Below, in pieces: positions 1-16,700 of a stretch of 64,000 nucleotides of DNA. The stretch is from IMG/VR virus record IMGVR_UViG_3300021963_000030; one strand, given 5' to 3'. The translations under genes and the position numbers were made by a program. This DNA is from a virus. The stretch's first letter is position 1. Each line of letters begins with the position of its first letter. Under the pieces are notes generated by a model. The model saw only the letters and a list, made by a program, of their open reading frames with translations, had not been told where the DNA came from and did not search any database.

Positions 1-2
1 GT

Positions 3-278
3 AAGAGTGAGTTTGTTCCATCTACAAACTACTTCGTTCGTGTGAAGAACAAGGAGTTTAATTATAGTAACAATCCTACATTTGTATCTGATGGAACTGA
101 TGGACTTACCAAGGGAACAATCATCTATCAAGATTTGATCAACAATCCAAGAACTTATATTACCAGTGTTGGTTTGTATAACTCTAACAATGAACTACTT
201 GCTATCGGTAAGATCAGTAGACCAGTTCAAAAGAGTTTTGATAGTGAACTGTTGATAAAAGTCCGTATCGATTTCTAA
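3..278 (+). CDS. 5'-truncated virion structural protein, C-terminal YITxVGLY...LLAxGKxS domain
   Basis: Frame 3 is open from the window edge (KSEFVPSTNYFVRVKNKEFNYSNNPTF...), so the track start at 42 is internal. Its C-terminus is paralogous to that of 5855..8440. Confidence 0.7.
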   Translation, partial: KSEFVPSTNYFVRVKNKEFNYSNNPTFVSDGTDGLTKGTIIYQDLINNPRTYITSVGLYNSNNELLAIGKISRPVQKSFDSELLIKVRIDF

Positions 279-286
279 TACAATCC

Positions 287-294
287 TATTTATA
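287..294 (+). promoter_or_regulatory. TATTTATA late-gene motif
   Basis: Exact motif 5 nt upstream of ATG 300; one of about 21 copies. Confidence 0.6.
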
Positions 295-299
295 TTAGG

Positions 300-1943
300 A
301 TGATCAAGTTTTTTAGAAATCAAGATATTATTTTGACTCCATTCACTCTTGCGAAACCGCAGGAGATGAATAGTATTTTCAATGATCTAATTGCGGTGAA
401 TGATGGAGACGAAGTTTATGCACTATCGACTCCAACTTTGGCATGTGATGATACGACTTCTGGTAGTTGTTATGAAACTACAGTTGAAGGATTTTTAGGA
501 GTAAGTCAGTTTGATGATGGAATAGCTCTCCAGATAGGTATTTACGTTCCATCAAGTTCTGTATTTTACCCAAGTGGAAGTCCAGATTATAATGCTTCGA
601 CAAATCCTCAAAATTTGGACGGAACTTATCAACGTCAAGTTTATAATACAGTCAAAAAGATGTATTATAACAACTACAATAACGCATACAACATGTTTGG
701 TATTGATGGGTATGACAACTCGTTGATGACAAGCAGTCTTACAAACGATATATCTGTTTTTAGTTTGACCATCAGTCAAGCAGGCGACAAAATCAGACCA
801 AATACGGTTGTAATAAGTAATCAAAGTGGTGACATCGTAGCAGACATAATTGATGATGGAAATTACAACTTGATACTTTCTGGAACTTACTTTATAAACA
901 AATATCCATTAAGTTCCGATTCAAGAGATTTGACTACTCCTTTGAATATTTGTGGTTTGGGTGCATATTTGTCAGATCCATATAATATTGAACCATGTTG
1001 TAATATAACTCCAACTCCCACACCTACTCCAGCTCCCACATCAACGCCAACTCCTACGCCAACACCTACTGCTACAAGCACACCAACTCCTACTGCTACT
1101 GCAACTCCTACGCCTACTGGCGCGCCAACAAATACGCCTACACCAACTCCGACCAATACGCCTACGCCAACACCTACAAATACCCCTACAAACACTCCAA
1201 CGGCTACTCCAACTCCAACCCCTGAACCTCCGACTGCTACGCCAACACCTACCCCAACTGCTACACCAACACCAACACCTGGTGGACCAACTGCAACTCC
1301 AACTCCTACACCAACTCCCACACCTACAAACACTCCAACGCCTACACCAGAACCGCCTACACCTACTCCGGTTCCTACAAATACACCTACCCCAACTGTC
1401 ACACCTACTCCGACGCCTACGCCTACACCGGAACCACCAACTCCGACGCCTACTCCTACTCCAGCGCCTGGTGACTTTTTTTACGTTGAAGCACGTATCT
1501 TTGGATCTTGTTCATCTGAACCCAATTGTATTGAATATCCTTCGTGCGTCCCATGTTGGGATGGAACGGGTGTTCAAGATTTGTGTCCTCCAGGAAATAT
1601 TGCGGTGAGTGTTACTGTTACTACTTATAACCAAGGTGGCGCCATAATGGAAAGCGTAGGCGACGAACAATCAACAATTTCATGTGGTGTAGTCCCATCA
1701 CAAAAAGTTGTGACTATACGATATAATTCGGCATTCCTAGGAGTAACAAGTTCTAATACAGCAATACAAGTTGTAAAGACAGAACCAAGGCTCGATAATA
1801 TAACAGGTTGTTGCACAACAATAACATCTCCAGGCACACCTAATACAGTTGATGATATTATTGCAAAAATAAATTATGCTATAAATAATAGCCTTGGATC
1901 TGGAACAGTTGGCGATCCATATCGCATGGATGTTTTCACCTAA
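300..1943 (+). CDS. Putative virion structural protein with a central Pro/Thr mucin-like linker
   Basis: 547 aa. N-terminal domain ([10 protein letters not shown]...IIDDGNYNL), about 154-residue PT/PTN/PTA repeat, then a Cys-containing C-terminal domain. Preceded by the late motif. Confidence 0.7.
1008..1469 (+). repeat. (Pro-Thr)n low-complexity coding repeat
   Basis: CCN-ACN codon alternation with varied third positions, encoding TPTPTP..., with occasional EPP, N, A, GG interruptions. Confidence 0.95.
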
Positions 1944-1954
1944 TTATATCTAAT

Positions 1955-1983
1955 TTCAAGATTGATGTAAGTCTATGTATAAT
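1955..1983 (+). promoter_or_regulatory. Sigma70-like promoter for the glycosylation cassette
   Basis: TTCAAG-17 nt-TATAAT, 5 nt before ATG 1989; no SD. Confidence 0.55.
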
Positions 1984-1988
1984 GAGTT

Positions 1989-3236
1989 ATGTCTAAAATA
2001 TTTGTTCAAATTGCCAGTTATAGAGATCCTGAGTTAGTTCCTACAATTAGAGATTTAATTGCTAAAGCCAAATATCCAGAAAATTTGACATTTGGTATAT
2101 GTTGGCAACGTGATGATACCGAGTCACTAGAAGAGTTTACTAATGACCCACGGTTCAGAGTGATGGATGTTCAGTATCAAAAAAGTGAGGGTTTGGGTTG
2201 GGCTAGAAATATAACACAAAAGCTTTGGAAAGACGAAGAATTTACATTACAAATTGATTCACATCATCGATTTGTTCAAGATTGGGATGCGATGTGTATT
2301 GAAGATTATAATCAAGCGTTAGAACTTAGTAAGAAACCAATCATTACAACATACTGCACCCCATTTAATCCAAAAGATGATCCGTCTACTTGGAATCCAG
2401 TTCCTTGTTTGATGAGTCAGTATGAGTTTTCATATGATAAATTGTTGATGAGTATGCCTTGGTTTATTCAAGACTATAAATCAAGAACTAAGGTAATTCG
2501 TGCCAGAACATTATCTGGACATTTTATTTTTACACAAGGAAAGTTCTGTGAGGAGGTTCAGTATGACCCAAGAGTATACTTTGGTGGATACACAGAAGAA
2601 ACGTCTATGAGTTTGAGAGCATACAGCCACGGGTATGATTTCTTCTCACCATACAGAATGATTATGTGGCATGAGTATACCAGAAACTATCGTGTCAAAC
2701 ATTGGGATGATCATGGTCATAAGACAGAACAAATTAAAGTCACCAGCGGAGAACGTGATGTTTTATCTCGTAACCTAGTCAGACAGTTGTTTGGTCAAGA
2801 AAATCATAATATACCATTTGGAGTTTATGGTTTAGGAACTGAACGGACTTTGCGTGACTATGAAGTTGCGTTTGGATTTGATTTTAAGAAGTGTAGAATT
2901 CAAGGTTATACCCTTAAGGTTAATGAACCACCTAATCCAGGCGTGTGGGAAGAAGAGTTTAAACTTGAAAACTACAATATGGTCGTAAATTGGGATGTTG
3001 AGTTTTTCAAAAACAATCAGTTGGATGGATATGAGTTCATAACATTTGGAATATTGGATAAGTTCAGTAATAACTTATATCGTCAAGATTTCAACCCGAA
3101 AGAACATCCCAATATTTTCAATTATACACAAAATACTCACACTGCGAAGTTTGCTAGTGAGAACAAACCGGATAAACTGGTTATGTATGGTCATACAAAA
3201 GCTGGATGGTCTCCTCGATATGAAAAGAGTATATGA
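1989..3236 (+). CDS. GT60-like (Gnt1/Skp1 GlcNAc-transferase-like) glycosyltransferase
   Basis: IFVQIASYRDPEL, GLGWARN, LQIDSHHRF (DxH), LSGHFIF, EEVQYDP..YF.GYTEE..MSLRAYSHGYDFFSP...MWHEY match the GT60/GlcNAc family pattern. Extra C-terminal domain. Confidence 0.8.
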   Translation: MSKIFVQIASYRDPELVPTIRDLIAKAKYPENLTFGICWQRDDTESLEEFTNDPRFRVMDVQYQKSEGLGWARNITQKLWKDEEFTLQIDSHHRFVQDWDAMCIEDYNQALELSKKPIITTYCTPFNPKDDPSTWNPVPCLMSQYEFSYDKLLMSMPWFIQDYKSRTKVIRARTLSGHFIFTQGKFCEEVQYDPRVYFGGYTEETSMSLRAYSHGYDFFSPYRMIMWHEYTRNYRVKHWDDHGHKTEQIKVTSGERDVLSRNLVRQLFGQENHNIPFGVYGLGTERTLRDYEVAFGFDFKKCRIQGYTLKVNEPPNPGVWEEEFKLENYNMVVNWDVEFFKNNQLDGYEFITFGILDKFSNNLYRQDFNPKEHPNIFNYTQNTHTAKFASENKPDKLVMYGHTKAGWSPRYEKSI

Positions 3237-4327
3237 GAATCGCATTTCTCGTCATAGGAAACACAAGTAGGAGTGGTGTTATCACCGGTAAAAATATAAG
3301 ATACGGCGGATCTAGTTGCTCTGGAACCGAGAGTAGTGTAATTTATGTTGCGGAGTATCTAAAAAAGATTGGACATGACGTAACTATAGCACTTGAGGTT
3401 TGCGATAAAGCTGAAGTCTGTGGTGGCGTCTTATACACAGATTTTTCTTTTAAAGGTGATGATACAAAAGAATATGATGTGTTGGTATCATGTTTGTGGT
3501 TTAATAAATATGATGAATTACCGATCAAAGTAACCAAGGCGGTTGTATATTGGTATCACTTGGCATGGGGATATGCTATGAACGATATGGTTAAGTTTGC
3601 CAAAGATAATAACTTAATCATCGGCACTATATCCGTATCGAATTGGGCAAAAAAAGAAAACGAATCATACAATGTTCCATTTAAGAATTACTCGGATAGA
3701 TATATTGAAGAGGTAATTCCAAATTCGTTAGATGTCCATCTGATCAATTCAGTTTGGAACAAAAAAATTCAAAGAAAAAAACATAAAATCATTCATTTTG
3801 GTCAATGGTCCAGAGGTGGAGACATCGCAAAAAATACCGCATATGAATTAGGGTGGGATGATTTGGTATTTGAGAGTTTTGATTATTTGGATTCGGAACG
3901 GGGGCTTGATAAGACTACACTATATACAAAACTCGCCGAGAGTGATTACTATATATTTCCACTTTTGACTCATGGAAAACTTGTTTATCAAGATACATTT
4001 TCTGTGTCAGTCGCTGAAGCATTAGCTATGGGTGTGACCGTAGTAACATATCCGTTGGGAGCAATACCAGAATATTTTGGTGACTATTGTAAATTTATTG
4101 ACTTTCCAAATGGCGTAAATATGGATGTGTTGTCTAAACTGCGTGTATTTGAAGAACCTAGATTTTCAGACACAACTAACATAATTAAACTGATTAATAC
4201 GATTGAACAAAGTGATGTCAGTGAGTATGACAGAATTTCACAACGTGAGTATATCTGTAATTCATTCAACGTTGAATTTGTAGGTAGTAAATGGAACAAT
4301 TTTCTGAACAACTTATGTATGATTTGA
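3233..4327 (+). CDS. GT-B fold, GT4-like glycosyltransferase
   Basis: GSSCSGTESSVIYVAEYL..GHDVT, and C-terminal DYYIFP...DTFSVSVAEALAMGVTVVTYPLGAIPE. ATGA overlap with the upstream gene. Confidence 0.8.
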   Translation: MRIAFLVIGNTSRSGVITGKNIRYGGSSCSGTESSVIYVAEYLKKIGHDVTIALEVCDKAEVCGGVLYTDFSFKGDDTKEYDVLVSCLWFNKYDELPIKVTKAVVYWYHLAWGYAMNDMVKFAKDNNLIIGTISVSNWAKKENESYNVPFKNYSDRYIEEVIPNSLDVHLINSVWNKKIQRKKHKIIHFGQWSRGGDIAKNTAYELGWDDLVFESFDYLDSERGLDKTTLYTKLAESDYYIFPLLTHGKLVYQDTFSVSVAEALAMGVTVVTYPLGAIPEYFGDYCKFIDFPNGVNMDVLSKLRVFEEPRFSDTTNIIKLINTIEQSDVSEYDRISQREYICNSFNVEFVGSKWNNFLNNLCMI

Positions 4328-4425
4328 TAGCATTAAAAGATCGTATTTACACAACAATCATAGACCATGAAGATGTTTTTTGTGTGAGTAATGAATACTT
4401 AAAACAACTGGGTAATAATTTATGA
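4315..4425 (+). CDS. Small hypothetical protein (36 aa, MYDLIALKDRIYTT...)
   Basis: Fills the gap between the GT4-like gene and the methyltransferase; its TGA overlaps ATG 4422 (ATGA). Below the ORF-track cutoff. Confidence 0.4.
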   Translation: MYDLIALKDRIYTTIIDHEDVFCVSNEYLKQLGNNL

Positions 4426-5081
4426 ATAAAATCGGAGTAGATGTGTATGAAAATTTCAGCCCCATGTATCCATTAGATATGCATGGGTGGATGGCAAATT
4501 CTGAGATATTTGAAAAGTTAATAACAAAATGTAGACCAGATACCATCATAGAAGTTGGAACTTGGAAAGGTAGATCTGCAATAACAATGTCAGAGATTGT
4601 AAAAAAACTAGGACTGGATTGTAAAATATATTGTATAGATACTTGGCTTGGCGCTTTAGAATTTTGGGGCAACGATATTCCTGTAGAAAAGAATTTGTTT
4701 TTGAAGAATGGATATCCACAGATATATTATCAATTTTTGTCCAACGTTGTTCATACAAACAATCAAGATATTATTACACCCGTGCCTCTTCCATCAAATT
4801 TAGCGGCTAAATTGTTGAAAAATAATCAAATAAAATCTCAACTTATTTATATAGATGGTTCACATGAAACCGATGATGTATATGCGGACATGACTAACTA
4901 CAGTAAATTATTAACCCCAGGCGGAATAATGTTTGGTGATGATTATACTTGGTATACCGTAAAAGACGGAGTTCGTAAATTTGTTGATGAAAATAAATGT
5001 GGACAAAATATGACTTATGAGTTTGATCCAAATCCAGAAGCAGGTCCTATAAATTGGATATATGAAAAACCCAAATTATGA
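4422..5081 (+). CDS. Class I SAM-dependent methyltransferase (Methyltransf_24-like)
   Basis: IIEVGTWKGRSA, YCIDTW, LIYIDGSH...LTPGGIMFGDDY. Confidence 0.85.
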   Translation: MNKIGVDVYENFSPMYPLDMHGWMANSEIFEKLITKCRPDTIIEVGTWKGRSAITMSEIVKKLGLDCKIYCIDTWLGALEFWGNDIPVEKNLFLKNGYPQIYYQFLSNVVHTNNQDIITPVPLPSNLAAKLLKNNQIKSQLIYIDGSHETDDVYADMTNYSKLLTPGGIMFGDDYTWYTVKDGVRKFVDENKCGQNMTYEFDPNPEAGPINWIYEKPKL

Positions 5082-5851
5082 AATTAGGATTATTTTACCA
5101 ATCGGGACATAAAATCGAAGCGTGTTATTTTGCGCTAGAACAGTTTAGAAAATTTTATCCATCTGAACCTATAGCTCTGTGGGAAGATAATACTAATATA
5201 TTGGTTCCTGTTTCTAGGAAATTTAACTGTGATTATAAAAAAACAACTATTCCAGGATTAAACACGACGACTTTGGGAAGGCCTGTATATAATTTAGAAA
5301 CATTGTTGTCTTGGTATGATAGAGTTTATGAATCATGTTTGACGACATTGAGTTCCGCAGATTGGGTTATGAATTTTGAAGACGATGTTTGGTTTAAAAA
5401 AAGAATTGAAGGAGAACCACCTTTTGATTTATCTGGAATTCTTGGCAGAGGTTGGCATGACGATTTGTATAATCACCTACAAACGTCTGTTAAAGGGTGT
5501 TTTGGATGTGGCGGGTCTATATTTAACCGATTGAAGTTTATAGAAGCATATAATAAACTAAAAAATGTAGATTGGCAATTGATAGATAATTTAGCTAAAG
5601 ATCCAAAACCGACCGAGTGGACTGATTCTGGTTTAACATTTCTATTTTATTATTCTAAGTTTAGTGTTGGTGGTTGGGTGGAGTTATCGCAATATAGATC
5701 TCAAAAAATACATGCTTTACATGATCTCGACTGTTGGTGGGAATCTATTAATAATAACAATGGATCTGTCATTCATGGGTTCAAACCATACTATTTTCCC
5801 ACTTTAGATCAAACAGATTACGTAAAAACTAATTTACTTCAATATTTATAG
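5078..5851 (+). CDS. Putative GT-A fold glycosyltransferase
   Basis: DWVMNFEDDVWF acidic metal-binding motif and GCGGSIFNR; lies in an ATGA-coupled glycosylation operon. Confidence 0.55.
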   Translation: MKLGLFYQSGHKIEACYFALEQFRKFYPSEPIALWEDNTNILVPVSRKFNCDYKKTTIPGLNTTTLGRPVYNLETLLSWYDRVYESCLTTLSSADWVMNFEDDVWFKKRIEGEPPFDLSGILGRGWHDDLYNHLQTSVKGCFGCGGSIFNRLKFIEAYNKLKNVDWQLIDNLAKDPKPTEWTDSGLTFLFYYSKFSVGGWVELSQYRSQKIHALHDLDCWWESINNNNGSVIHGFKPYYFPTLDQTDYVKTNLLQYL

Positions 5852-5854
5852 TAA

Positions 5855-8440
5855 ATGTCGAATCTGTTAAACATCTATAACGAGAACTTTGGACAACATG
5901 TAGTCACGAATGGTGCTTACATAGCTGTGTCAAACACCAACTCAAAGCCATACTCTTGTGAGGAGGGATTTGCTAGAATTGGCGAAGTGGTAATTTATCA
6001 AAAAAATAGATTTTCTACGAACTATTCTTTTGCAAAGACGTATAGAAACGAAGTCGAGAGTCGAGGCGACATTTTGTCATACTACACAGAACAAAGTGCG
6101 AGTGTCGATTTTACGGCTTCTTTGAGATACGAAAGTGGATCTTACACTGACAACTCATTAGCATGTGACTTTTTGGTATTGGAAGATGGAACGGTAATTT
6201 CTAAACAAACTTCGTTTGGATCTGCATTAGCTATGTGTGATCGATTCTTAGCAATATCAGATATTGCATTTAGTCAAAGCATAGCAAATATTGATCAAAA
6301 TTATGCATCCGTGTATATCTACAAGTTCTTTGACGAAAATATTACGGGATCATGTTCTGTAGAAAATAATGATTTGTTTACTTTGCCAGATCTTCCAATT
6401 TGTGGAATAACAGGTTCAGCCGCTGAAGGATTTGGTAGATCAGTAGCAATTTCTGACAACTTCTTAGCAATAGGATCACCATTCAAAAATTCAAACAGTG
6501 GGTCAGTTGACATTTATTTGTATACTGGATCTGGTTGTGGATATTATTTGTATTATCAAACTATAACTTCTTCAAATAACGCTGATGCGTATTTTGGAAC
6601 ATCTTTGTATATCGATAAATTTGATGAAAACAAATTGGTAATATCATCTGGACCACAAACAGATAGTAAAGTATTTGTTTACTTCAGAGAAGGAGATATA
6701 AAAACTGGAACGTGGGAATTGACTCAAACAATTTCTCAAGATACTTCATCAAAGTGGTTAAGAATAGAAGGAGATCAAGATCTTGAGTGGTTTCCCATCA
6801 GTCAAACGAATACTAGGTATGGTTATTCAGTAGCAGTTGCTAAAAATAATTTGATCGTAGGTGCTCCTAACGATCTTATTTACTACGAGTATAGTAGTTC
6901 ATTGGCACTTACTGGGTCACAACCTTTAAGACAAAGAGGCGCTATTTACTATTACAGTTTGCCTGTGACCGGATCAAAAGAATTTGCACTAGTAGAGAAA
7001 ATCTACGGTGATACAAATACATTCAAAGACAACATGTTTGGATATAGTGTTGATATAAACAACCAATATGTTCTTGCTGGATCTCCAAAACGATATTTTC
7101 CATTTTCTAGTTTGTATTTGTCCGCATCTGTTGATAGATACAATACAAATTTTGAGGTAAATGATTTTGGTGCTAGCACATTTAACGGACAAGCCATGTT
7201 GTATAAGATATCGACTGACGTTTGTCCAGATCAATTGACTTTGAAGATGGCAACAACCACACCTATAGGATACAGAAAGAAGGTGGGTGAGTCTTTCACA
7301 GCGTTTGGTGCATCTGTTGCATTGTCCGAACAAAACTTGGTTATAGGTTCACCAGCACCATTGAATAATGACATGTATTTGGCGGAACCATATGCGGTAG
7401 AACAAAGTGGTAGTGGTGAGTTTAATTGTAATGGTGATGACCCAACTGATGTAGTTTATCTTAGAATGGAAGATGAGATTTGTGATTGTAGTGGATATGA
7501 TTTGAATTCTGCTCAAAGTGGTTCGATTGTGTTTATTGAAGAGACAGATGCAAATGTTGTTGCAAGTTTATATGGTAGAGCTTTTATCTATGATTTTAGT
7601 GATCTACAAACCAATCCAAACGTAGGTAACATATTCTATAGTTACAATAAGTTTGTGGTAAACAACACAGGCAGTATATTTGCGGATATTTTAAAGAACC
7701 CACTACAACCTCTTGATGATTACATTTATGGTGAATATCAAAGTCAAATAACCCTCCATGAAAAACAATATATCTGCACTGTAGAACCAGGCGAGTTCAA
7801 CATCTCTACCAATCCTACAGCTGTTACTTCTTCGTTGGTAGGACCATACTGTGTTATCAACAAAGATACATTTGACTTTAGTAACTTGGATATCATATTG
7901 AGGTATATCAACTATAAATTGACTTCTACACACGTTGAATCTTGGTGGGATGTGTTGGTATCTGGCGATGTTCAAGAAAGTATATTTGGATTCTTCACAT
8001 CATCCGTAGTTGATTACACAGACAATCGATTGACACCAGAGTTGTTATGTGAATTAGGAACCAAAAATTTTGACGTAAATAAAGATGGTATGATCAATTA
8101 TGCAGATGCGTATATGATCTGGAACTACTTTATACAAAATTTGACAATTGAAAATTATCAACAGTATGTTGGTCCTACTTCAAAGAGAAAGAACTATGAC
8201 GATATTATTGCGTTTCTGGATGAACAAACTGGCAAAGGTAATCAGAATACAGTAAAAGCTGAGTTCTTTGATTATAACTTCAGTTCGTCTGTGGACCCAA
8301 CCGGTTCTTATTTGGCACCGTATATTACTGAGGTTGGTTTGTATGCTGGTGCAGATCTTGTAGCGGTTGCTAAGTTAGCAAGTCCTATCAAAAACAACGG
8401 TCAAATTCCAATAAATATTGTTGTTAAATGGGACACATAA
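5855..8440 (+). CDS. FG-GAP beta-propeller virion protein with EF-hand/dockerin-like motif and C-terminal YITEVGLY domain
   Basis: About 7 FG/YG blades (FGSALAM, FGRSVAISDNFLAIGSP, YFGTSL, YGYSVAV...IVGAP, FGYSVDI...AGSP, FGASVAL...IGSP); DVNKDGMINYAD; TATTTATA 4 nt upstream (5843-5850). Confidence 0.75.
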   Translation: MSNLLNIYNENFGQHVVTNGAYIAVSNTNSKPYSCEEGFARIGEVVIYQKNRFSTNYSFAKTYRNEVESRGDILSYYTEQSASVDFTASLRYESGSYTDNSLACDFLVLEDGTVISKQTSFGSALAMCDRFLAISDIAFSQSIANIDQNYASVYIYKFFDENITGSCSVENNDLFTLPDLPICGITGSAAEGFGRSVAISDNFLAIGSPFKNSNSGSVDIYLYTGSGCGYYLYYQTITSSNNADAYFGTSLYIDKFDENKLVISSGPQTDSKVFVYFREGDIKTGTWELTQTISQDTSSKWLRIEGDQDLEWFPISQTNTRYGYSVAVAKNNLIVGAPNDLIYYEYSSSLALTGSQPLRQRGAIYYYSLPVTGSKEFALVEKIYGDTNTFKDNMFGYSVDINNQYVLAGSPKRYFPFSSLYLSASVDRYNTNFEVNDFGASTFNGQAMLYKISTDVCPDQLTLKMATTTPIGYRKKVGESFTAFGASVALSEQNLVIGSPAPLNNDMYLAEPYAVEQSGSGEFNCNGDDPTDVVYLRMEDEICDCSGYDLNSAQSGSIVFIEETDANVVASLYGRAFIYDFSDLQTNPNVGNIFYSYNKFVVNNTGSIFADILKNPLQPLDDYIYGEYQSQITLHEKQYICTVEPGEFNISTNPTAVTSSLVGPYCVINKDTFDFSNLDIILRYINYKLTSTHVESWWDVLVSGDVQESIFGFFTSSVVDYTDNRLTPELLCELGTKNFDVNKDGMINYADAYMIWNYFIQNLTIENYQQYVGPTSKRKNYDDIIAFLDEQTGKGNQNTVKAEFFDYNFSSSVDPTGSYLAPYITEVGLYAGADLVAVAKLASPIKNNGQIPINIVVKWDT

Positions 8441-8469
8441 CCATATTTATTATAAAGCGATAAAAACAT

Positions 8470-8958
8470 ATGGCTACTCTATCAGACAGCAAAATAATTG
8501 ACCGTGAATCATCAAACAAGAGTTTGGCAGACAGATATTTGTCTGGTCAAGCCGCTGGTGGTGCTTATCAACCAGTTCAAAAGAATGTCAAGACACAAGG
8601 TTCAAATGAGTTGTCACTTGGTGGAAGCACAGCTGATAGAGACTGGACTGTTTCCAAGGGGTTCTTGACAAAGGTCACTACTGGAACTGAGAATTTTAAT
8701 AAAAGCGCACTCAATTATAGTGATAATACCAGAAACGGTCCAGTTATTACCACGGGTATAAACAAAATTGCTACTAACTGGAATGGAGGATCTTCAATCA
8801 AAGATACTTTGTATACCGTTGATCCAGGCTTTAGAACTAATACTCCTACTGGTGCTACACAATTCAAGGATGCTATAGGAAATCAATCCAAGCAACTTTC
8901 TATATACTTAAAGGGTTTCAATTCAAACAAATATATTAATGGCGGGTTTACTCGTTAA
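8470..8958 (+). CDS. Hypothetical protein (late motif upstream)
   Basis: 162 aa with a weak internal duplication (GFLTKVTTGTENF / GFRTNTPTGATQF); TATTTATT at 8444-8451. Confidence 0.6.
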   Translation: MATLSDSKIIDRESSNKSLADRYLSGQAAGGAYQPVQKNVKTQGSNELSLGGSTADRDWTVSKGFLTKVTTGTENFNKSALNYSDNTRNGPVITTGINKIATNWNGGSSIKDTLYTVDPGFRTNTPTGATQFKDAIGNQSKQLSIYLKGFNSNKYINGGFTR

Positions 8959-8972
8959 TATATCTATTTGTA

Positions 8973-9485
8973 ATGGTTATATTAGGTTTAGATTCATCAA
9001 CATCGGTTACTGGATGGGCATTTAACGTCGATGGTAAAATCGAACAAGCGGGTTTTATTGACACCAAAAAGTTCGAAACGACTAAAGAAAAAACGTTTCA
9101 TGTAATCTCAGAATTGGAAAAGATTCCACTCATTAAAAAAGTGGACCATATAAATCTTGAAGCAGCCCTCAGTGGTTTTGCTGGCGGATTTACATCACAA
9201 CAAGTTATTATAACTTTGGCACGACACAATGCTGTATTTGCTTATATCATTGAAGAACACTTCAAATGTAAAGTAAATCTTCTATCGGTTACTACAATGC
9301 GTAAACATCTTTTTGGAAAATGTCGTGTCAAGGGTATCAAACCAAAAGAGTTTGTGAAAGAAGAGTTGGAAAAAATGATGCCCACTGTTACTAAGTTTAC
9401 CGTTAAGAATAAAAAAGGAAATTGGGACGAGCGAAATAGCGACATGTATGACGGAATTGTATGCGCCATGTATGTCGAAAAATAA
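8973..9485 (+). CDS. RuvC-like Holliday junction resolvase
   Basis: ILGLDSSTSVTGWA, INLEAA, and terminal DMYDGIVCA give the RNase H-fold D..E..D-x2-D acidic set. Confidence 0.8.
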   Translation: MVILGLDSSTSVTGWAFNVDGKIEQAGFIDTKKFETTKEKTFHVISELEKIPLIKKVDHINLEAALSGFAGGFTSQQVIITLARHNAVFAYIIEEHFKCKVNLLSVTTMRKHLFGKCRVKGIKPKEFVKEELEKMMPTVTKFTVKNKKGNWDERNSDMYDGIVCAMYVEK

Positions 9486-9489
9486 AAAG

Positions 9490-9517
9490 TTGATTCTGCT
9501 AATTCGTCGTGTAGAAT
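9490..9517 (+). promoter_or_regulatory. Sigma70-like promoter upstream of primase
   Basis: TTGATT-16 nt-TAGAAT, 11 nt before ATG 9529. Confidence 0.4.
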
Positions 9518-9528
9518 GAGAATGACGT

Positions 9529-10440
9529 ATGGTAGAAACTTCGGTTATAGATACACTTACAAGACTTTTTAAACACAAACCGTCTGTCCAAAAGGGCGGA
9601 ACGGAGTTGATGTTTTTTTGTCCCAATTGTAATCACTATAAAAGGAAGTTGAACGTAAACACAACTACAGGTTATTATCACTGTTGGGTTTGTAATTTTA
9701 GTGGAAAAGGATTCAAGAGTCTTCTTAACAAAATCAAAGCTCCCGCAGAGTATTATGAATCTTTGTGCAAGATCAAGGCTCCTAGATCAATTAAGAGTGA
9801 TGTAAAGAAACTACATCTACCGTGGGAATTCAAACCGTTGTATCTTCACGATCATGATGTGATGTATAAACACGCTTTGAACTATTGTTTGAAACGTGGA
9901 TTGAGTGTGTATGACATAGTTCGTTACAACATAGGTTACTGTCCTTGTGGTCAGTTTAAGAACCGTGTTGTAGTTCCTTCATATTCTGCAACGGGTGAAC
10001 TAAACTTTTTTTGTGGTAGAGATATCTATGAAAGTAAGATGAAATATAGATTGTGTGAATCTACCAAAGATGTAATTGGATTTGAAATGTTCACAGACTT
10101 TAGTAAGCCTGTGACCCTAGTTGAAGGTGTATTTGACGCATTTTCTGTAAAATACAACGTGGTTCCGTTGTTTGGAAAAACCATGTCCAATAAACTCAAG
10201 GCTAAGATGACTACACAAAGGCCTCCTAGAGTAAATGTATTGTTGGACAACGATGCAATCAAGAGTAGTTTGGACATATGTCAATTTTTGGTATACAACG
10301 GCATCGATACACATCTTGTATTATTGGATGGTAAAGATCCAAATGAACTTGGACATAAAAATACTTGGAAAGCCATAGATGCCAGTGTTAAGATCTCCGA
10401 AAGCGATTTATTCAAATTGAAAATTAAACACAAGTTATGA
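9529..10440 (+). CDS. DNA primase (Zn-ribbon + TOPRIM), T4 gp61-like
   Basis: CPNC...HCWVC zinc ribbon; RVVVPSY; TLVEGVFDA and LDND TOPRIM motifs. Confidence 0.85.
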   Translation: MVETSVIDTLTRLFKHKPSVQKGGTELMFFCPNCNHYKRKLNVNTTTGYYHCWVCNFSGKGFKSLLNKIKAPAEYYESLCKIKAPRSIKSDVKKLHLPWEFKPLYLHDHDVMYKHALNYCLKRGLSVYDIVRYNIGYCPCGQFKNRVVVPSYSATGELNFFCGRDIYESKMKYRLCESTKDVIGFEMFTDFSKPVTLVEGVFDAFSVKYNVVPLFGKTMSNKLKAKMTTQRPPRVNVLLDNDAIKSSLDICQFLVYNGIDTHLVLLDGKDPNELGHKNTWKAIDASVKISESDLFKLKIKHKL

Positions 10441-13400
10441 TAGTATTAAAAAACACAGATAGTAAGATCGACAATGTGATTCAGGTGTCTGATATTCATA
10501 TTCGTCTGACAAAGCGCCATGAAGAATATACTTCTGTATTCGAACGTTTTTATACTGTCTTGGACAAAATCAAGAAGAATACAAACTTGGTGTGCGTTAT
10601 CACGGGTGACGTATTTCACAACAAGAGTGATCTAAGTCCCGAGTGTGTCAAAATTGGTAGTGACTTTTTGAAGAACTGTGCGGATCGTGTTCCTACCATC
10701 TTGATTGCTGGTAACCACGATGCTACACTAGCTAATAAAAGCAGACTCGATTGTTTGACTCCGATTGTTGATGCTCTTCAACACCCCAACCTTTATTATC
10801 TCAAGCAAAGCGAAGTGTTTCGTTACGAAAACATTTTGTTCAATCACTTTAGTGTGTTTGATGAATGTGATAAGTATATCAAGTATGATTCTATCCCAGA
10901 TAAGCACAAACTATCAACGGATCATCACGTTGCGTTGTTTCACGGGCCAGTAAATGATGCGGTTACAGATGTTGGTTATACTGTGAGTAACAGAACCATC
11001 GTGAACGATCTGTTTGATGGTCATCATATTGCGATGTTAGGTGATATTCATAAACATCAGATTCTTCAAGAGTATAATGAAGATGAAAACAAGCCTGTGA
11101 TTGTTTATGCTGGATCGATGATTCAACAGAACCATGGTGAGGAACTCAAGGGTCATGGATTCTTGTTGTGGGATCTAAAGCGTAAGTTGTTTAAACACTA
11201 TGAACTTCCCAATGATTATGGTTTCTATACCATTGAAATCAACAAGGGTAAGTTGATCACCGATATTGCGGATATTCCCAAGAAGGCTCGTATCAGAACC
11301 AAGTGTTTTGAATCGATTCCATCACAAGTAAAAGAAGTGATTAATGAGATCAAGGACAAGTGTGAAATTCTTGAGTCAACATTTATTCGTATTGATGAAT
11401 TTGACAATAATACAACTAAGATCAATCAGGTTCTTGATATCCATAACATCTTTAATGTTGATTATCAAAACAAATTGATTGAAGATACGTTGGTGTCTAA
11501 GAAGACCAACAAGACTTTGATTGATAAAGTAAAGGAACTAAACAAGAATATTAATCTTCAAATTCCTAAAGATAAAACTCCAAAGAACATTCGATGGAAG
11601 CCTAAGACTTTTGAGTTTGACAATATGTTCAGTTATGGTGAAAGTAACTACATTGACTTTACCAAACTAAAGGGAACCATTGGTTTGTTTGCTCCTAATG
11701 CTAGTGGTAAATCTAGCATCATGGACGCACTTGCATTTTGTGTATTCGACAAGTTCAGTAAGGGATATAAAGCGGTTCATGTTCTCAACACACAAAAGAT
11801 GAGCTTCAAGTGTAAGTTCAATTTTGAAGTCAGTGGTGTTGATTACTTCATTGAACGTGAAGGTAAAGCCGATAAGAAGGGTGCAGTCAAGGTTGATGTC
11901 AAGTTCTATAAGATCGACAAGGATGGTCAAGAGGTGCCTTTGAATGGTGAAGCACGTAGATCAACCAACGATATTATTAGAGACTATGTTGGAACCTATG
12001 ATGACTTTATCTTGACGGTGTTGAGTATTCAGAACAGTAAGGCTGGGTCATTTATTGATCTTGGTCAGACTGAACGTAAGGATTTGTTGTGTCAATTTAT
12101 GGGTCTTAATATCTTTGATCAACTCTATAATATTGCGAATGAAAACTTCAAAGAGACCAATACATTGTTGAAGAATATCAGTAAAGACCAACTTGAATCG
12201 GATCTTACTAATATCTCTGGTAGTATTGATATTAATTTGACAAACATTGCCACATTCAATTCCGAGTTAAAGACACTAGAGTCCCAGAAAGAAGAACATA
12301 ACAATCACTTACTTCAACTCAGCAAGAATATTGTTAAGTTGGATTCTATTAAGTCTGTCGATATTACCGATCTGGAAAAAGATAAGATTGAACATGGAAA
12401 AAACATTGGTAAGTTCGAATCTTCAATTGCGGATAATAAGACCAAGTTAGAAGAAGTTGAATCTCAAATCACTTCATTGAGTTCGTCATTGAAGTTGTGT
12501 GAGAACATTGAGACTACTTATCAAGAATATAAGACTGTGAAGAAAGAACAAGAAACAAAACAGTCTCAGATTGATCAATTGAAGTTTGTCATAAAGACCA
12601 AGGTTGATAAACTCAAGAAACTTGAAGAACATAAGTATGATCCTAATTGTGAATACTGTGTTAATAACGTATTCGTGAAGGATGCTATTGCAACAAAACA
12701 AGACCTTGAAAATGAAAAGATCAATGCTTCTAACATCATTGCTGAGTTTAACAAAATAAAAGCAAAGGTAGAAGAATTTGGTGATATTGAGACAAGGTAT
12801 CAAAATTGTCAAAGCACCAATAACGATAGAATCAAATTGGAAAAACGTCGTGAAATATTGACCACATCAATTCTGCGTGATGAAAATTATTTGATTACGT
12901 TGAAAAACAAATTAAAGGAGACTATTGATAGTATTGATGCGTTCTATAAGAACAAAGATACTATTGAAAATAATCAGAAATTGTTGAATGAGATTGAAGA
13001 ACACAAGGGTCTGATCAAAGATATTGAATTGGAAATTAAGTCTGTAAATTCCAAGTTGTTTAACATTTCTACTGAGAAAGGTAGATTGGAGTTGCAGTAT
13101 AAGAATACTACTGATCAGTTGAATAAAGTAAAGGAGTTGGAAGATTCCTACGAAGCATACAAACTGTATACGTCAATTATAAGCCGTGACGGTATTCCAT
13201 ATGATGTTATTACCAAGACTTTGCCTGAGATCGAAAAGGAAGTTAACAATATTCTTCATCAAATTGTGGAGTTTAGTGTAACTCTTCAGACTGACGGTAA
13301 GAACATTATGACCAACATTGTTTATGATGACAAACGTTGGCCGCTTGAAATGGCTAGTGGTATGGAGAAGTTCATTAGTGGACTAGCTATCAGAGTCGCT

Positions 13401-13628
13401 TTGATTAATATTAGCAATTTGCCGAGACCCAATATTATATGTATTGATGAAGGTTTTGGTTGTGCTGATAGTGATCACTTGGGTCAAATGGGATCGTTAT
13501 TTACATATTTAAAACACCAATTTGAATTTATCTGGGTTATTAGCCATCTTGATCAAATGAGAGACATGGTTGATCAACAGTTGGAGATAAAGAAAGAAAA
13601 TGGGTATAGCAAGATCGATTTTCGGTGA
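10437..13628 (+). CDS. Single-chain Mre11/SbcD nuclease - Rad50/SbcC ATPase fusion (gp47-gp46-like)
   Basis: SDIH, GDVFH, GNHD, FHG and GDIHK phosphoesterase motifs, then Walker A APNASGKSS, coiled coil, CEYC zinc hook, ASGME signature, IDEGFG Walker B and VISH, all in one 1063-aa frame. Confidence 0.92.
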   Translation: MIVLKNTDSKIDNVIQVSDIHIRLTKRHEEYTSVFERFYTVLDKIKKNTNLVCVITGDVFHNKSDLSPECVKIGSDFLKNCADRVPTILIAGNHDATLANKSRLDCLTPIVDALQHPNLYYLKQSEVFRYENILFNHFSVFDECDKYIKYDSIPDKHKLSTDHHVALFHGPVNDAVTDVGYTVSNRTIVNDLFDGHHIAMLGDIHKHQILQEYNEDENKPVIVYAGSMIQQNHGEELKGHGFLLWDLKRKLFKHYELPNDYGFYTIEINKGKLITDIADIPKKARIRTKCFESIPSQVKEVINEIKDKCEILESTFIRIDEFDNNTTKINQVLDIHNIFNVDYQNKLIEDTLVSKKTNKTLIDKVKELNKNINLQIPKDKTPKNIRWKPKTFEFDNMFSYGESNYIDFTKLKGTIGLFAPNASGKSSIMDALAFCVFDKFSKGYKAVHVLNTQKMSFKCKFNFEVSGVDYFIEREGKADKKGAVKVDVKFYKIDKDGQEVPLNGEARRSTNDIIRDYVGTYDDFILTVLSIQNSKAGSFIDLGQTERKDLLCQFMGLNIFDQLYNIANENFKETNTLLKNISKDQLESDLTNISGSIDINLTNIATFNSELKTLESQKEEHNNHLLQLSKNIVKLDSIKSVDITDLEKDKIEHGKNIGKFESSIADNKTKLEEVESQITSLSSSLKLCENIETTYQEYKTVKKEQETKQSQIDQLKFVIKTKVDKLKKLEEHKYDPNCEYCVNNVFVKDAIATKQDLENEKINASNIIAEFNKIKAKVEEFGDIETRYQNCQSTNNDRIKLEKRREILTTSILRDENYLITLKNKLKETIDSIDAFYKNKDTIENNQKLLNEIEEHKGLIKDIELEIKSVNSKLFNISTEKGRLELQYKNTTDQLNKVKELEDSYEAYKLYTSIISRDGIPYDVITKTLPEIEKEVNNILHQIVEFSVTLQTDGKNIMTNIVYDDKRWPLEMASGMEKFISGLAIRVALINISNLPRPNIICIDEGFGCADSDHLGQMGSLFTYLKHQFEFIWVISHLDQMRDMVDQQLEIKKENGYSKIDFR

Positions 13629-13739: not shown

Positions 13740-16700
13740 ATGCCAATTCAAGAAGGTGGACGATGGAGTCCAACACAAAATATAGTAAGTCCTGGTGTTT
13801 TCACCAGAGAAAATGACTTATCGGGGCTAGCCCAAGGCGTAGCCAACATAGGTGGTGCAATCGTGGCTCCGTTCGCCGACGGACCTGCGTTTTTCCCAAG
13901 CGTGATCACAGACGTAGCAACACTAGAACAAAGATTCGGTATTGCTGACGGTGTATACTACGGTCCCTACACTGCAAAAGAATACCTCTTACAACAAGGT
14001 ATCGTAACCATAGTTCGTGTCGGCGGATTGACTGGTTACTGGCAAAAGAACCCATTGGTGGTTTATGCTGAACCAGGTCAATGGCTTAGAACTTGGGATA
14101 TTGGTGCTTTGACTACCGCTTCGTTTATGTATTTGAATAGTGGTGACTACACTGCTAATCTTCAATACGTTCACAGTGCTTCATCATGGGAAATCGAACC
14201 AAGTGCTTTAGTAAGAACCAATCCGCTTGCAGGTATCTGGATCACTGGTTCTAATACAACAAACCAACAAATTGCTGATTTCGTTGGTGCAAATTCAAGT
14301 TTGGAATACATCAATGATTTGTCTGCTTCTCTCGTAGCATTGAAAGATGCTGGTAAGTTGGTAAGTTTGACTACTTACAATGCTTATTCAGCATTTAGTG
14401 CCTCGGTTGTCGCAGCTGGACTTAAAGTCACCCCATCAGGTGGTGGTTCAGATCACGCTTTGGCATGGTTTGACGTAACTCAATGGGCACCATATGGTTA
14501 TGTTTACAAGTCTGGTTCTGGTGCATGGAGCACATTCCAAATTGATGATAACATTACTGGCAACATAGTCAACGGATTCCCAACTAACTCTGGATCTTAT
14601 TTGACTGCTTCTATCATCAAGGTTAACAATCAACAAGTTACCTTCCCATTCGTAGCATTGTCAACAAGTGTAGGTTCGAACGCTACAGTTTGTTCTCACA
14701 AAGAAACTGGTGCTAATACTACTTCTTCTCCATATTTCTATCCAACCTTTGATTGTTCTTACTTGACAATCAGTGGTAGCATTAATGCAAGATTTGGTAG
14801 TGCTGCTTTGACCAGTGGATTCCCATCCAACTACAATGGAACTGGTAATTTGAGTGGTAGTAAGTTGTATGCTGGTAAGCAAGTAAGTCTTGGAACTGTC
14901 GAGACTGCTCAGCTCAGCAGACGTTTCTACGGTGCTACTCACTTGGCTCCGTCTGGATCTGCTGGATTGTATTTCTACTTGAGTTCTAGTGCTCAAGGAA
15001 GTAGCACCGCTACAACAGAGACTCAAATTGCTACAGCAATTGCAGAAAGCACCGAAGTATCATTCTTGTTGACTTCAAGTTTGTTGAACCTTGGTTCTAC
15101 AACTTCTAACATCGCATTGGAATATGACCAAGATACGTTTGATGCTACAAGCGACTTGTATATTAAGAGTGGTAGCTTTGCTACTGTTCGTAGTGCCGCA
15201 ACTTGCGGTGCCGCATTGAGATTCTTGGGTCTTGTAAGTGGTTCTTACGGAGCATTTACAGGCAACTTCGAAGCTGATGGTTCGGGTGGTTCAGATCCAT
15301 GTAATCCATCTACAACAGGTCGTCAACCAGTTGTGCTCGCAGTATTGGCTAACACCCAAAATGCTTCGACACAATTCAGTAGCGATTATGAAGTATACGG
15401 ATTTGACACTTCTACTGTAAGTCAATTGACCAGTTCAGTATATCCATATCAAGGTATTGTCAATCCAAACGACAACGTTTATCAACTTATCTTGAGATAC
15501 AACTGGACTGATACAAACGGTGTGGTTTCTGACGGAACCTACGGTTATTATGACTTCAGCTTGAATGAAGATGACAACAACTATATCAAGGACGTATTCG
15601 GAATTGATCCAACTGTTGGTAATCCATCTAAGCAAATTGCTGGTCAAAAGGTAGAGGCTGCATATAACTACATCCTCTTCGAAGACACCATCAAGAAGTT
15701 TATTGCTGAAAAGACTCGTCCAAATGCTGAGGGTGGTGGTTGGAGATTGTTGGTAGCAACTGCTCCATCTGCTTCGTTTAGTGTTGGTGAGTCTATGAAG
15801 TTCTTGGATCAATACTCACTAGATCCTAACAGTGGTGATTCACAATTTGCTATCACAAATGCGAAGACCCCATGGTTCTATAGTCAACAAATTGCTCCAT
15901 TCAAGGGAAGTGCTGATGAAGCAGCTGTTCCTACCAAGTTCAAGTTGTTCAAGGTTCACACTCTCAGTGACGGTAGCTTGAGTAACAAGAAGTATAAGAT
16001 CGAAATTAGCAACGTTAAGTTGGCTGGAACTGTTCCAGGCAGCAATTGGGGTTCATTCACTCTTGCTGTTCGTGCTTACAGTGATACCGACAAACGTCCT
16101 AAGTATCTTGAAATCTTCCAAAACTTGAACCTCGACCCAGACAGTGCAAACTTCATTGCACGTCGTATTGGTGATCGTTACGCATACATTACCTTCGCTG
16201 GTAAGATTGTAGAATACGGAACTTACGTTAACTTGAGTCAGTTTATCAGAATCGAAATGACCGACATTGCTTATCCAGAAGTAGTCGTTCCTTACGGTTT
16301 CGAATCATACTCTGCTCCAGTAAACGGAACTCTAAGCAACATGTTGCCAGCAGTTCGTTACAGTAAGGCAAGTATCTATGGTCTCGCACCTGGTAAGTAT
16401 CCATCTGGAACTGTGTTTGGTGATGTTCCAGAAAGTGGTGCTCAAATCGCTGCTTTGTATCCTACCGCTTCGTTTGGAGTAGGTGTCGCAAATGATACAA
16501 AACAATACTTCAAGCCTCTTCCATCCTACGGTGGTTCAGATCAAAACGGTGAAAACATCGACTTTGATTTGGAAGCAAAGGTATGGGGAACAGCAGACTG
16601 TTCTTACTATGCTCAAGGCGTATCGGCAAGCACCGGTTCGTTACTTGCTCCAAGTTTGAGTGGTAGTATTCCATCGGTATACGATCCAGTCAATGAATCT

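Follow-up and report, generated by a model that had tools for sequence, protein, structure and literature searches.

Secreted glycoside hydrolases of bacteria and fungi, such as the cellulases of Cellulomonas and actinobacteria, have Pro/Thr linkers that are O-glycosylated, for example by GT39 Pmt-type mannosylation. These spacers lie between globular modules, and their O-glycans stiffen them and shield them from proteases. In chlorovirus PBCV-1, virus-encoded, ER/Golgi-independent soluble GT-A enzymes (e.g. A64R, PDB 2p6w) glycosylate a virion protein; the glycans are methylated, N-linked and borne by the major capsid protein of this eukaryotic virus. Family GT60 (PF11397) includes protist enzymes, among them the pp-alphaGlcNAcTs of Dictyostelium and Trypanosoma cruzi and the Skp1-hydroxyproline transferase Gnt1, which is cytoplasmic. 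The characterized members are polypeptide alpha-GlcNAc transferases that start mucin-type O-glycans on Ser/Thr-rich domains (PMC8724618). According to the account given in PMC12619734, mycobacteriophage glycosyltransferases act in the cytoplasm and attach O-glycans to structural proteins of the phage itself (Freeman et al. 2023, Cell Host Microbe).

Here, we have analyzed a stretch of 64 kb (hereafter, the window) from an uncultured far-T4-like myophage, a water phage. A module flanked by two late genes consists of a modular late protein, rich in Pro and Thr (PT protein), and a four-gene cassette of soluble enzymes (Table 1). The best explanation, to which we assign a probability of about 60%, is that Thr-Pro linkers of phage appendage proteins are O-glycosylated in the cytoplasm, with GT60 as the initiating enzyme. 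As in the mycobacteriophage system, phage-encoded glycosyltransferases would act on the phage's own proteins. As far as that system is described in the above account, it differs in its acceptors, which are C-termini of capsid and tail-tube subunits in actinophages, whereas a Thr-Pro spacer within a modular accessory protein is proposed for this T4-like phage. The initiator in the window would be a GT60 enzyme. Compared with the glycoside hydrolase linkers, to which membrane GT-C enzymes add lipid-linked mannose in the course of export, the enzymes of the window are soluble, nucleotide-sugar-dependent GT-A and GT-B types. We found no paper in the literature describing this kind of cassette.

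Table 1. Features of the module and its borders in the window
Feature	Position	Strand	Basis or remark
Upstream conserved protein, C-terminal end	3..278	+	full length ~371-373 aa in relatives
TATTTATA motif, putative late promoter element of PT gene	287..294	+	5 nt before ATG
Conserved N-terminal domain, aa 1-230, presumed anchoring module	300..989	+	42-82% identity in 56 viral contigs
(TP)n tract T237-P390, 154 residues, proposed O-glycan acceptor	1008..1469	+	Thr/Pro composition
Variable Cys-rich C-terminal beta-sandwich domain of PT protein	1470..1943	+	model pLDDT 80-96
Soluble GT60 (PF11397) glycosyltransferase, proposed initiating polypeptide alpha-HexNAc transferase	1989..3236	+	PF11397 + phrog_24687
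GT-B / GT4-like glycosyltransferase, translationally coupled to GT60	3233..4327	+	ATGA overlap, phrog_2170, ESM Atlas
Non-coding gap of 94 nt between coupled pairs	4328..4421	.	inside 4127-5279, segment without DNA homology to L003
Class I SAM methyltransferase, CmcI / rhamnosyl-O-MT / TylF type, swapped-in module	4422..5081	+	PF13578, PF04989
GT-A fold glycosyltransferase without Pfam family	5078..5851	+	AF2 model + Foldseek vs PDB
TATTTATA motif of FG-GAP gene	5843..5850	+	4 nt upstream, inside end of ORF 5078-5851
FG-GAP repeat protein, closes slot	5855..8440	+	PF14312 E 4.6e-18

The PT protein (ORF 300-1943, 547 aa) consists of a conserved N-terminal domain joined by a Thr-Pro spacer to a variable beta-sandwich domain at its end, and its gene is the only PT-rich ORF in the window. 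It matched no PHROG or Pfam family, and no homologue could be identified among cultured phages. The sequence-only reading had noted a Pro/Thr tract of about 154 residues, and exactly this length was found; 67 Thr and 62 Pro were counted in the 167-residue stretch scored, and the tract is predicted to be disordered. Synonymous codons are mixed along it (ACT, ACA, ACG and ACC; CCT, CCA and CCG) and its DNA repeats are merely 62-82% alike, which argues that the tract is maintained at the protein level. The N-terminal domain, whose AF2 model was poor (pLDDT ~30-40), makes up nearly the whole protein (232-248 aa) in most of the 41 scored contigs lacking a linker. For the C-terminal domain, the best PDB matches were generic beta-sandwiches (Z <= 5.2), and it is just 47-53% identical in relatives whose N-terminal domain is 81% identical. 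The protein had been described earlier as a late-motif virion protein. The motif part of this description holds, since TATTTATA (reverse complement of TATAAATA) is present in 25 copies where 5.1 would be expected; the virion part is our inference from the putative late motif, the place between late genes and the modular architecture. Thirteen plus-strand genes, including the PT, FG-GAP, tail tube, baseplate-like and adaptor-like genes, have the motif 3-25 nt ahead of their ATG, and it precedes none of the four cassette enzyme genes.

The first cassette gene encodes a sequence member of GT60. The search against PF11397 gave an E-value of 7.9e-57 (193.7 bits, cutoff 21), with residues 54-300 covering positions 97-351 of the 352-position profile and a second stretch aligned as well, and phrog_24687 was matched at E 1.7e-93. 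Like the protist enzymes, it has a D-S-H metal-binding-type motif and no ricin-like lectin domain, and the Thr/Pro-rich, mucin-like protein proposed as its acceptor is encoded beside it. Residues D90-S91-H92-H93, H178 and H228 are invariant across eight phage homologues 42-83% identical to it, the D-x-H/D-x-D-type motif being scored among phage homologues rather than against a characterized enzyme. Unlike the protist enzymes, it is phage-encoded and soluble, would work in a bacterial cytoplasm rather than the Golgi (Gnt1 is likewise cytoplasmic), is operon-linked to GT4, GT-A and methyltransferase genes, and has a conserved extension of ~115 aa (aa 301-415) beyond the Pfam model. By analogy with the characterized family members, it may move a sugar onto the Thr-Pro tract.

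The assignments previously made for the other three enzymes were also largely sustained. That of the GT4-like enzyme found support in phrog_2170 (E 9.4e-8) and in the ESM Atlas (feature score 0.98; structure TM 0.77-0.79 to Glycos_transf_1 clusters), whereas its Pfam matches, confined to residues 230-286, stayed below threshold (PF13692, 24.3 bits, E 4e-5, cutoff 27; PF00534, 18.6 bits, cutoff 26.4). Of 23 related loci, 21 have a GT4-like gene downstream of GT60, and in 19 it is the immediate neighbour. The third enzyme certainly has a methyltransferase fold, matching Methyltransf_24 (PF13578; E 3e-16, 60.6 bits, cutoff 26.3) and PF04989 (E 4.6e-8, 33.5 bits, cutoff 23.2); the TylF score was below its cutoff, and the NCBIfam rhamnosyl O-MT model NF045824 scored 22.8 against a cutoff of 400 (E 5e-5). 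The enzyme is sugar-O-methyltransferase-like, and its substrate may be a sugar. The last enzyme matched no Pfam, NCBIfam or PHROG family, and a profile built from 48 of its homologues gave nothing significant against PDB sequences (best E 0.19; E 0.19 for chlorovirus A64R, 2p6w). Its AF2 model (pLDDT 93.8, pTM 0.92) gave 367 Foldseek matches in the PDB at E<=0.001, with the best (E ~2e-7) to GT8, GT6 and GT24, and the best 50 of these 367 were all glycosyltransferases or sugar-phosphate transferases. The leading matches were Gat1 (6mw5), UGGT, GTA/GTB, LgtC and glycogenin (TM 0.41-0.54), and an Atlas structure search retrieved GT8 at TM 0.64-0.66. Within its acidic, DxD-type E101-D102-D103 motif, E101 and D103 are invariant in the 48 homologues, and fusions with GT25, GT1, GT6 and methyltransferase domains occur in the family. 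The model thus places it in the GT-A fold of the retaining GT8/GT6/GT24 clan, outside any named family.

The N-terminal domain of the PT protein was found in the same slot in 56 phage contigs, where the order is upstream protein, N-domain gene and FG-GAP gene; the C-terminal end of the upstream protein was present in 54 of them, nearly always directly before the N-domain gene, and in relatives without the cassette the FG-GAP gene comes straight after it. Among the 50 rows that could be scored (49 contigs and the window), 41 had neither linker nor GT60, nine had both and none was discordant. Independent distribution of GT60 homologues and PT-rich proteins, named in the sequence-only reading as a refuting result, was not what we saw. 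Likewise, no PT/STP-rich ORF occurred in 42 GT60-less segments (803 kb), as compared with 12 in eight GT60-bearing loci (165 kb). In four of the nine rows with both traits, the GT60 is very different (38-42% identical), in the form of a tandem-GT60 protein of ~870 aa, followed in the two such loci examined (L067 and L086) by an FkbM-MT/HtrL/GT2 fusion protein; these loci keep the same logic built from different parts. Because spacer and enzymes are always present or absent together in related phages, the phage probably sugar-coats its own appendage. It should be noted that on the N-domain tree the linker and GT60 traits change just 3-4 times, giving 2-3 independent pairs (sign test p = 0.5), and with only ~3 independent transitions and adjacent genes the slot test is unable to reach significance. 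Since linker and cassette are physically adjacent, a single recombination event can move both without a functional link.

Adjacency was also observed more widely. In GT60-anchored loci with enough flank, the immediate upstream gene was PT-rich in 14 of 19, over four of five GT60 clades; a test of adjacency in related contigs had been suggested earlier. In close relatives' contigs of 52-77 kb, all or nearly all TP-coding runs lay within 3 kb of GT60. Among 33 bacterial GT60 loci, all nine PT-rich ORFs were within 2.9 kb of GT60 and none at 3-10 kb, and 25 loci had no PT neighbour. These 25 loci speak against the best explanation, as does one phage clade (L011-L014 and L022; GT60-GT4-GT25-GT11-Glf) in which the 10 kb around GT60 were free of PT ORFs: contigs of 67 and 91 kb from this clade were devoid of any, and a third contig had one 74 kb away. 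Thr/Ser-rich repeat proteins are encoded a few kb downstream in this clade. In another phage, which likewise counts against the best explanation, PT genes are spread over several distant sites, which would imply action in trans. Both observations would suit a quite improbable reading in which phage proteins are glycosylated, but not (or not only) at the Thr-Pro tract, the tract being a flexible spacer and the targets globular end domains, other virion proteins (capsid or tail tube, for instance) or tracts rich in Ser/Thr at other places; mycobacteriophage glycans, as cited in PMC12619734, sit on C-termini of capsid and tail-tube subunits. On the other hand, it is the linker itself that covaries with GT60, and one relative (L070) has the N-terminal domain and an extra domain, without linker and without GT60. 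Moreover, PT proteins next to GT60 have non-homologous globular domains (e.g. Laminin_G_3) and share only the tract.

The genes predicted to elongate the glycan are hypervariable between phages whose GT60 is 93% identical, with sharp DNA breakpoints. They comprise the methyltransferase and GT-A genes in the window, a GT25-like gene (in the place of the methyltransferase) and a GT-A gene in the near relative L003, an unassigned gene, a GT25-like gene and GT11 in L001, and an FkbM-MT in L002; the more distant L006 (GT60 79% identical) carries Glf. Such swapping is expected for an exposed glycan. It typifies O-antigen loci too, and GT25-, GT11- and GT8-like enzymes are commonplace in LPS/O-antigen loci, as are Glf and FkbM-type methyltransferases. 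Together with the GT60-GT4 cassettes lacking PT neighbours and a distant member of the last cassette enzyme's family fused to a Wzy_C O-antigen ligase domain, this could suggest that the cassette acts during infection on an envelope glycan of the host, be it LPS, capsule, S-layer or cell-wall polymer, so as to block superinfection or aid release, for instance, and that PT adjacency means only that both belong to one hypervariable accessory island of the fibre region. We consider this unlikely: the cassette lacks a lipid-carrier initiating transferase, a flippase, a polymerase and any TM segment, characterized GT60 members use polypeptide acceptors, and both the joint gain and loss of linker and GT60 (41:0:0:9) and the clustering of bacterial PT ORFs within 3 kb of GT60 would be left unexplained.

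Cultured jumbo phages of Xanthomonas and Stenotrophomonas have their GT60 next to a carbamoyltransferase gene and replication genes, near DNA polymerase and RNase H, a placement that counts against the best explanation. The window, too, has replication genes (primase, SbcCD) near the cassette. Hypermodification of DNA with diverse glycans by arrays of phage glycosyltransferases is on record, as cited in PMC12619734, and the enzymes could accordingly be imagined to glycosylate hypermodified phage DNA and evade restriction, as T-even glucosyltransferases and other multi-GT phage systems do. This appears very improbable, considering that the cassette lies between genes with the putative late motif and not among nucleotide-metabolism genes, that no base-hydroxymethylase was seen next to it, that no nucleic-acid acceptor is known for GT60, that DNA is not known to undergo sugar O-methylation or chemistry of the GT11, GT25 and Glf kinds, and that covariation with a protein linker would have no explanation.

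For glycosylation of the Thr-Pro linker, the following course may be proposed. In the host cytoplasm, GT60 would put the first HexNAc on threonines of the spacer, by family precedent alpha-GlcNAc from UDP-GlcNAc. The GT4-like GT-B and GT8/GT6-like GT-A enzymes would then lengthen the chain, and the CmcI/rhamnosyl-O-MT-like methyltransferase would methylate a sugar. As all four enzymes build or modify glycans, a multi-sugar, possibly methylated glycan is plausible, and the product might be a stiff, protease-resistant, strain-specific sleeve on the phage appendage. No TM or signal segments were found in the PT protein or in the four enzymes, as would be expected if the reaction took place in the cytoplasm and the protein left the cell by lysis.

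Thus, both the GT60 match and its association with PT genes in the sequence-only reading stood, whereas its promoter-timing argument found no support. Positions 1-9000 contain 40 sigma70-like sites against 39.5 expected, so that the promoter claimed for the cassette is no better than a chance match and the idea that the enzymes are expressed before their substrate loses its support. The candidate TTTCAA-N18-TATAAT (1954-1983) failed the criteria of the scan. The proposed coupled four-enzyme operon is coupled within two ATGA-overlapping pairs (overlaps at 3233-3236 and 5078-5081), but is split as a single unit by the gap between them. Finally, the proteins bordering the slot, the upstream protein and the FG-GAP protein, have a C-terminal module in common (BLASTP E 5e-5).

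The family of the PT protein N-domain (residues 1-230) was present in 56 viral contigs. Wherever the flanks were visible, its gene occupied one and the same slot, in the order upstream protein, N-domain gene and FG-GAP gene. The Thr-Pro linker was absent from 41 scored contigs, most of which encoded the N-domain alone (232-248 amino acids; L070 carried an extra domain, again without linker). The FG-GAP gene followed directly in these contigs, with L098 as the exception, and no GT60 gene was detected within 10 kb in any of the 41. Where a PT or Ser/Thr/Pro linker and a complete flank were present (eight contigs and the window), a GT60 cassette always lay between the PT gene and the FG-GAP gene, giving a linker/GT60 table of 41:0:0:9 (41 with neither, 9 with both and none discordant). 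Likewise, 12 PT- or Ser/Thr/Pro-rich ORFs were identified in eight GT60-bearing loci (165 kb), versus none in 42 GT60-less segments (803 kb). If the cassette modified a glycan of the host envelope, or if it glycosylated DNA, such covariation would be explained less well than if the linker itself were the acceptor, and a cassette directed at other phage proteins would meet the same difficulty. Strict pairing in one slot also offers a clean design, as the same anchor protein occurs with and without linker and cassette. It should be noted that the linker and GT60 traits changed only 3-4 times on the N-domain tree. This leaves 2-3 independent concordant pairs, with which a sign test cannot reach significance (p = 0.5, concordant but underpowered). 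We do not claim statistical proof of linker-GT60 co-evolution from this slot alone, and one recombination event could transfer linker and cassette together, since they lie side by side. In four of the nine linker-bearing loci the GT60 was divergent (38-42% identical to that of the window, in a protein of ~870-900 amino acids). The two examined with Pfam (viral loci L067 and L086) had a tandem GT60 followed by an ~800-residue FkbM-methyltransferase/HtrL (YibB)/GT2 fusion protein, and thus the same initiator-elongator-methyltransferase logic is built from different parts.

The GT60-anchored set comprised 23 viral loci (GT60 homologues 40-93% identical), in 21 of which a GT4-like gene lay downstream of GT60, immediately adjoining in 19. 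The adjacency of GT60 and PT-rich genes, which the sequence-only reading had put forward as a check, held in most loci: a PT-rich gene was immediately upstream of GT60 in 14 of the 19 loci with enough upstream flank, representing four of the five GT60 clades. The PT proteins of these loci had no globular domain in common with that of the window, and some GT60-neighbouring PT proteins contained Laminin_G_3 lectin-like domains. A whole-contig scan for TP-coding runs placed essentially all of them within 3 kb of GT60 in close relatives, while one 185-kb phage contig had further PT genes at distant sites. In one clade (L011-L014 and L022), GT60-GT4 was followed by GT25-like, GT11 and UDP-galactopyranose mutase genes; no PT gene was found within 10 kb of the cassette, and the scan of whole contigs revealed either no runs or one at 74 kb. 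Three members of this PT-less clade encode Thr/Ser-rich repeats a few kilobases downstream (TTSKTD repeats and T/G/Q/S-rich runs), and these proteins could be alternative acceptors. In bacteria (one genome per species), 33 GT60 loci were collected. Eight contained PT-rich ORFs and 25 did not; all nine such ORFs were at most 2.9 kb from GT60, and the zone from 3 to 10 kb contained none. In several Pseudomonadota MAGs the PT protein was encoded directly upstream of GT60; these proteins have 1200-1450 residues with the PT tract near residue 820, and that of L046 ends in an Rv2525c-like glycoside-hydrolase-like domain. Among cultured phages, only jumbo Xanthomonas and Stenotrophomonas phages had a GT60 homologue (33-36% identical). 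In their loci a gene of ~2.3 kb follows GT60 (carbamoyltransferase by XacN1 annotation), with DNA polymerase and RNase H nearby.

The ORF layout proposed earlier was borne out. The PT protein (547 amino acids) contains a tract of 154 nearly pure Thr/Pro residues (T237-P390; the scored stretch has 167 residues, 67 T and 62 P) and is encoded by the only PT-rich ORF of the 64-kb window. Synonymous codons were mixed in the tract and its DNA repeats were loose; therefore, the tract is kept at the protein level. The N-domain belongs to a narrow family (16 protein clusters) and was not modelled usefully in an AF2 model of the whole protein (pLDDT 30-40), and PDB structure matches of the C-terminal domain were to generic beta-sandwiches only (Z <= 5.2), which assign it no function. 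The four enzymes were assigned as had been suggested: a GT60 (PF11397, E 7.9e-57), a GT-B/GT4-like enzyme (PHROG and ESM Atlas feature/structure matches, sub-threshold in Pfam), a class I methyltransferase (CmcI/rhamnosyl-O-methyltransferase and TylF-like matches) and a GT-A enzyme, which had no family match but a confident model (pLDDT 93.8). The last had 367 PDB structure matches, best to GT8, GT6 and GT24 retaining transferases, and an invariant E-D-D motif, and its relatives include fusions to GT25, GT1, GT6 and methyltransferase domains. One homologue, P0171 (1212 amino acids), joins methyltransferase, ORF6-like and GT1 domains, with an intein/HINT insertion within the GT1 domain. A phmmer search of the three glycosyltransferases against PDB sequences gave nothing significant. 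No transmembrane or signal segment was detected in the PT protein or the four enzymes. The supposed coupled operon is better described as two ATGA-coupled pairs, since a 94-nt gap splits them. The GT60 has a C-terminal extension of ~115 residues (301-415) beyond the PF11397 model, which may be an acceptor-binding module. The extension was kept in the aligned full-length phage homologues; many bacterial matches reached only residues 1-300, and the match in L023, a viral locus, stopped at residue 319 close to the contig end.

The late motif TATTTATA was real (25 copies versus 5.1 expected). It was located 3-25 nt upstream of ATG in 13 plus-strand genes, including the PT, FG-GAP, tail tube, giant baseplate-like and adaptor-like genes, and was absent before all four enzyme genes. 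These are mostly structural genes, the spacing is usually 3-5 nt, and no Shine-Dalgarno sequence was visible in the spacers; if the motif serves as a -10-like element of late promoters, transcripts would begin at or beside the start codon, and the late mRNAs would be leaderless or nearly so. The sigma70-like promoter that the cassette had been thought to own was not supported: such sites occurred at chance level (40 versus 39.5 expected), the proposed one did not pass the scan, and in relatives the sequence preceding GT60 was rich in AT but showed no conservation with that of the window.

Comparison with close relatives revealed a mosaic structure. L001, a related contig with a 93% identical GT60 protein, had DNA homology to window positions 1-1735, 1986-3263 and 5833-10498, and none to 3264-5832, which holds the GT4, methyltransferase and GT-A genes. 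Relative to L003, only 4127-5279 was replaced, the counterpart of the methyltransferase being a GT25-like gene. The end domain of the PT protein was 47-53% identical in relatives versus 81% for the N-domain, and in close relatives, but not in the window, another PT protein is encoded between the first one and GT60. An initiator that is conserved while acceptor ends and elongators are exchanged around it is the pattern that would be expected of an exposed, diversifying glycoconjugate. The genes after GT60-GT4 vary among related phages (GT25-like, GT11 of the fucosyltransferase family, FkbM methyltransferase and UDP-galactopyranose mutase), which implies that otherwise similar phages differ in their glycans, these bearing fucose, galactofuranose or methyl caps.

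GT60 enzymes initiate mucin-type glycans by placing alpha-GlcNAc on Ser/Thr-rich domains (PMC8724618), and mycobacteriophage capsid and tail-tube glycosylation, as cited in PMC12619734, provides a phage precedent. The best-supported reading of the genes is cytoplasmic O-glycosylation, in which GT60 would start a glycan on the Thr-Pro spacer, the GT-B and GT-A enzymes would lengthen it and the methyltransferase would methylate one of its sugars. More generally, soluble GT60 may represent an undescribed, widespread mucin-type O-glycosylation of prokaryotes and phages, which would act in the cytoplasm on spacers (Thr-Pro or Ser/Thr/Pro) in modular appendage proteins of phages and in some bacterial proteins and, elaborated by hypervariable, swapped elongators, would produce a strain-specific glycan coat; we give this a probability of about one half. 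Our literature searches found no description of GT60 or PF11397 in phages. If this reading is true, the initiating chemistry of mucin-type O-glycosylation would extend beyond the secretory pathways of eukaryotes, into the bacterial cytoplasm and tailed phages, and the many Thr-Pro tracts in structural genes of aquatic phages would be accounted for. Phage-host recognition, particle stability and protection from proteases and grazers in water would likewise gain a glycan layer, and glyco-engineering in E. coli would profit from a soluble polypeptide HexNAc-transferase that works on simple (TP)n acceptors.

Coordinates of the features discussed
Feature	Sequence	Coordinates	Strand	Basis
PT protein	window	300-1943		
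GT60	window	1989-3236		
GT4-like	window	3233-4327		
Methyltransferase	window	4422-5081		
GT-A (ORF6)	window	5078-5851		
FG-GAP protein	window	5855-8440		
SbcD/SbcC-like ORF	window	10437-13628		
Tail sheath	window	13740-17711		
Major head protein	window	29246-30976		
TATTTATA	window	287, 5843, 17787, 23886, 26498, 32641, 33579, 37542, 43445, 46344, 49628, 53147, 58281	+	
Second cassette type, same slot	L067	11680-14292, 16106-18511		Pfam
Second cassette type, same slot	L086	12507-15110, 17644-20034		Pfam
Variable genes after GT60-GT4	L001; L002; L003; L006; L011	12420-14646; 2382-3059; 12345-13043; 3786-4901; 12424-15687		
Thr/Ser-rich repeats	L012; L013; L022	20400-21245; 20377-21243; 15972-16730		
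Bacterial PT protein	L046; L055; L032; L033; L034	5054-8650; 4874-8497; 4382-8740; 3483-7181; 5095-8745		
GT60 locus	L024 (Xanthomonas phage XacN1)	7989-11706		
GT60 locus	L025 (Stenotrophomonas phage RAS14)	8001-11818		

The window derives from an uncultured far-T4-like myophage (GC ~36%) and has genes for a gp23-type major head protein, portal, large terminase, tail sheath and tail tube as well as for baseplate-wedge-like proteins. The head proteins of Microcystis phage Mel-JY01 and Flavobacterium phage immuto share 52% identity with that of the window. No match to cultured phages was obtained for positions 1-9000 (megablast) or for the N-domain and FG-GAP protein (tblastn), and thus no annotated relative backs a virion role of the PT protein. 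The sheath match was confined to residues 1024-1321 of 1323 and the main head match to residues 296-559 of 576; therefore, long N-terminal parts lie outside the matches in both. Finally, a 1063-residue ORF with an SbcD-like nuclease at its N-terminus and an SbcC-like ATPase in the remainder looks like an SbcD-SbcC fusion.
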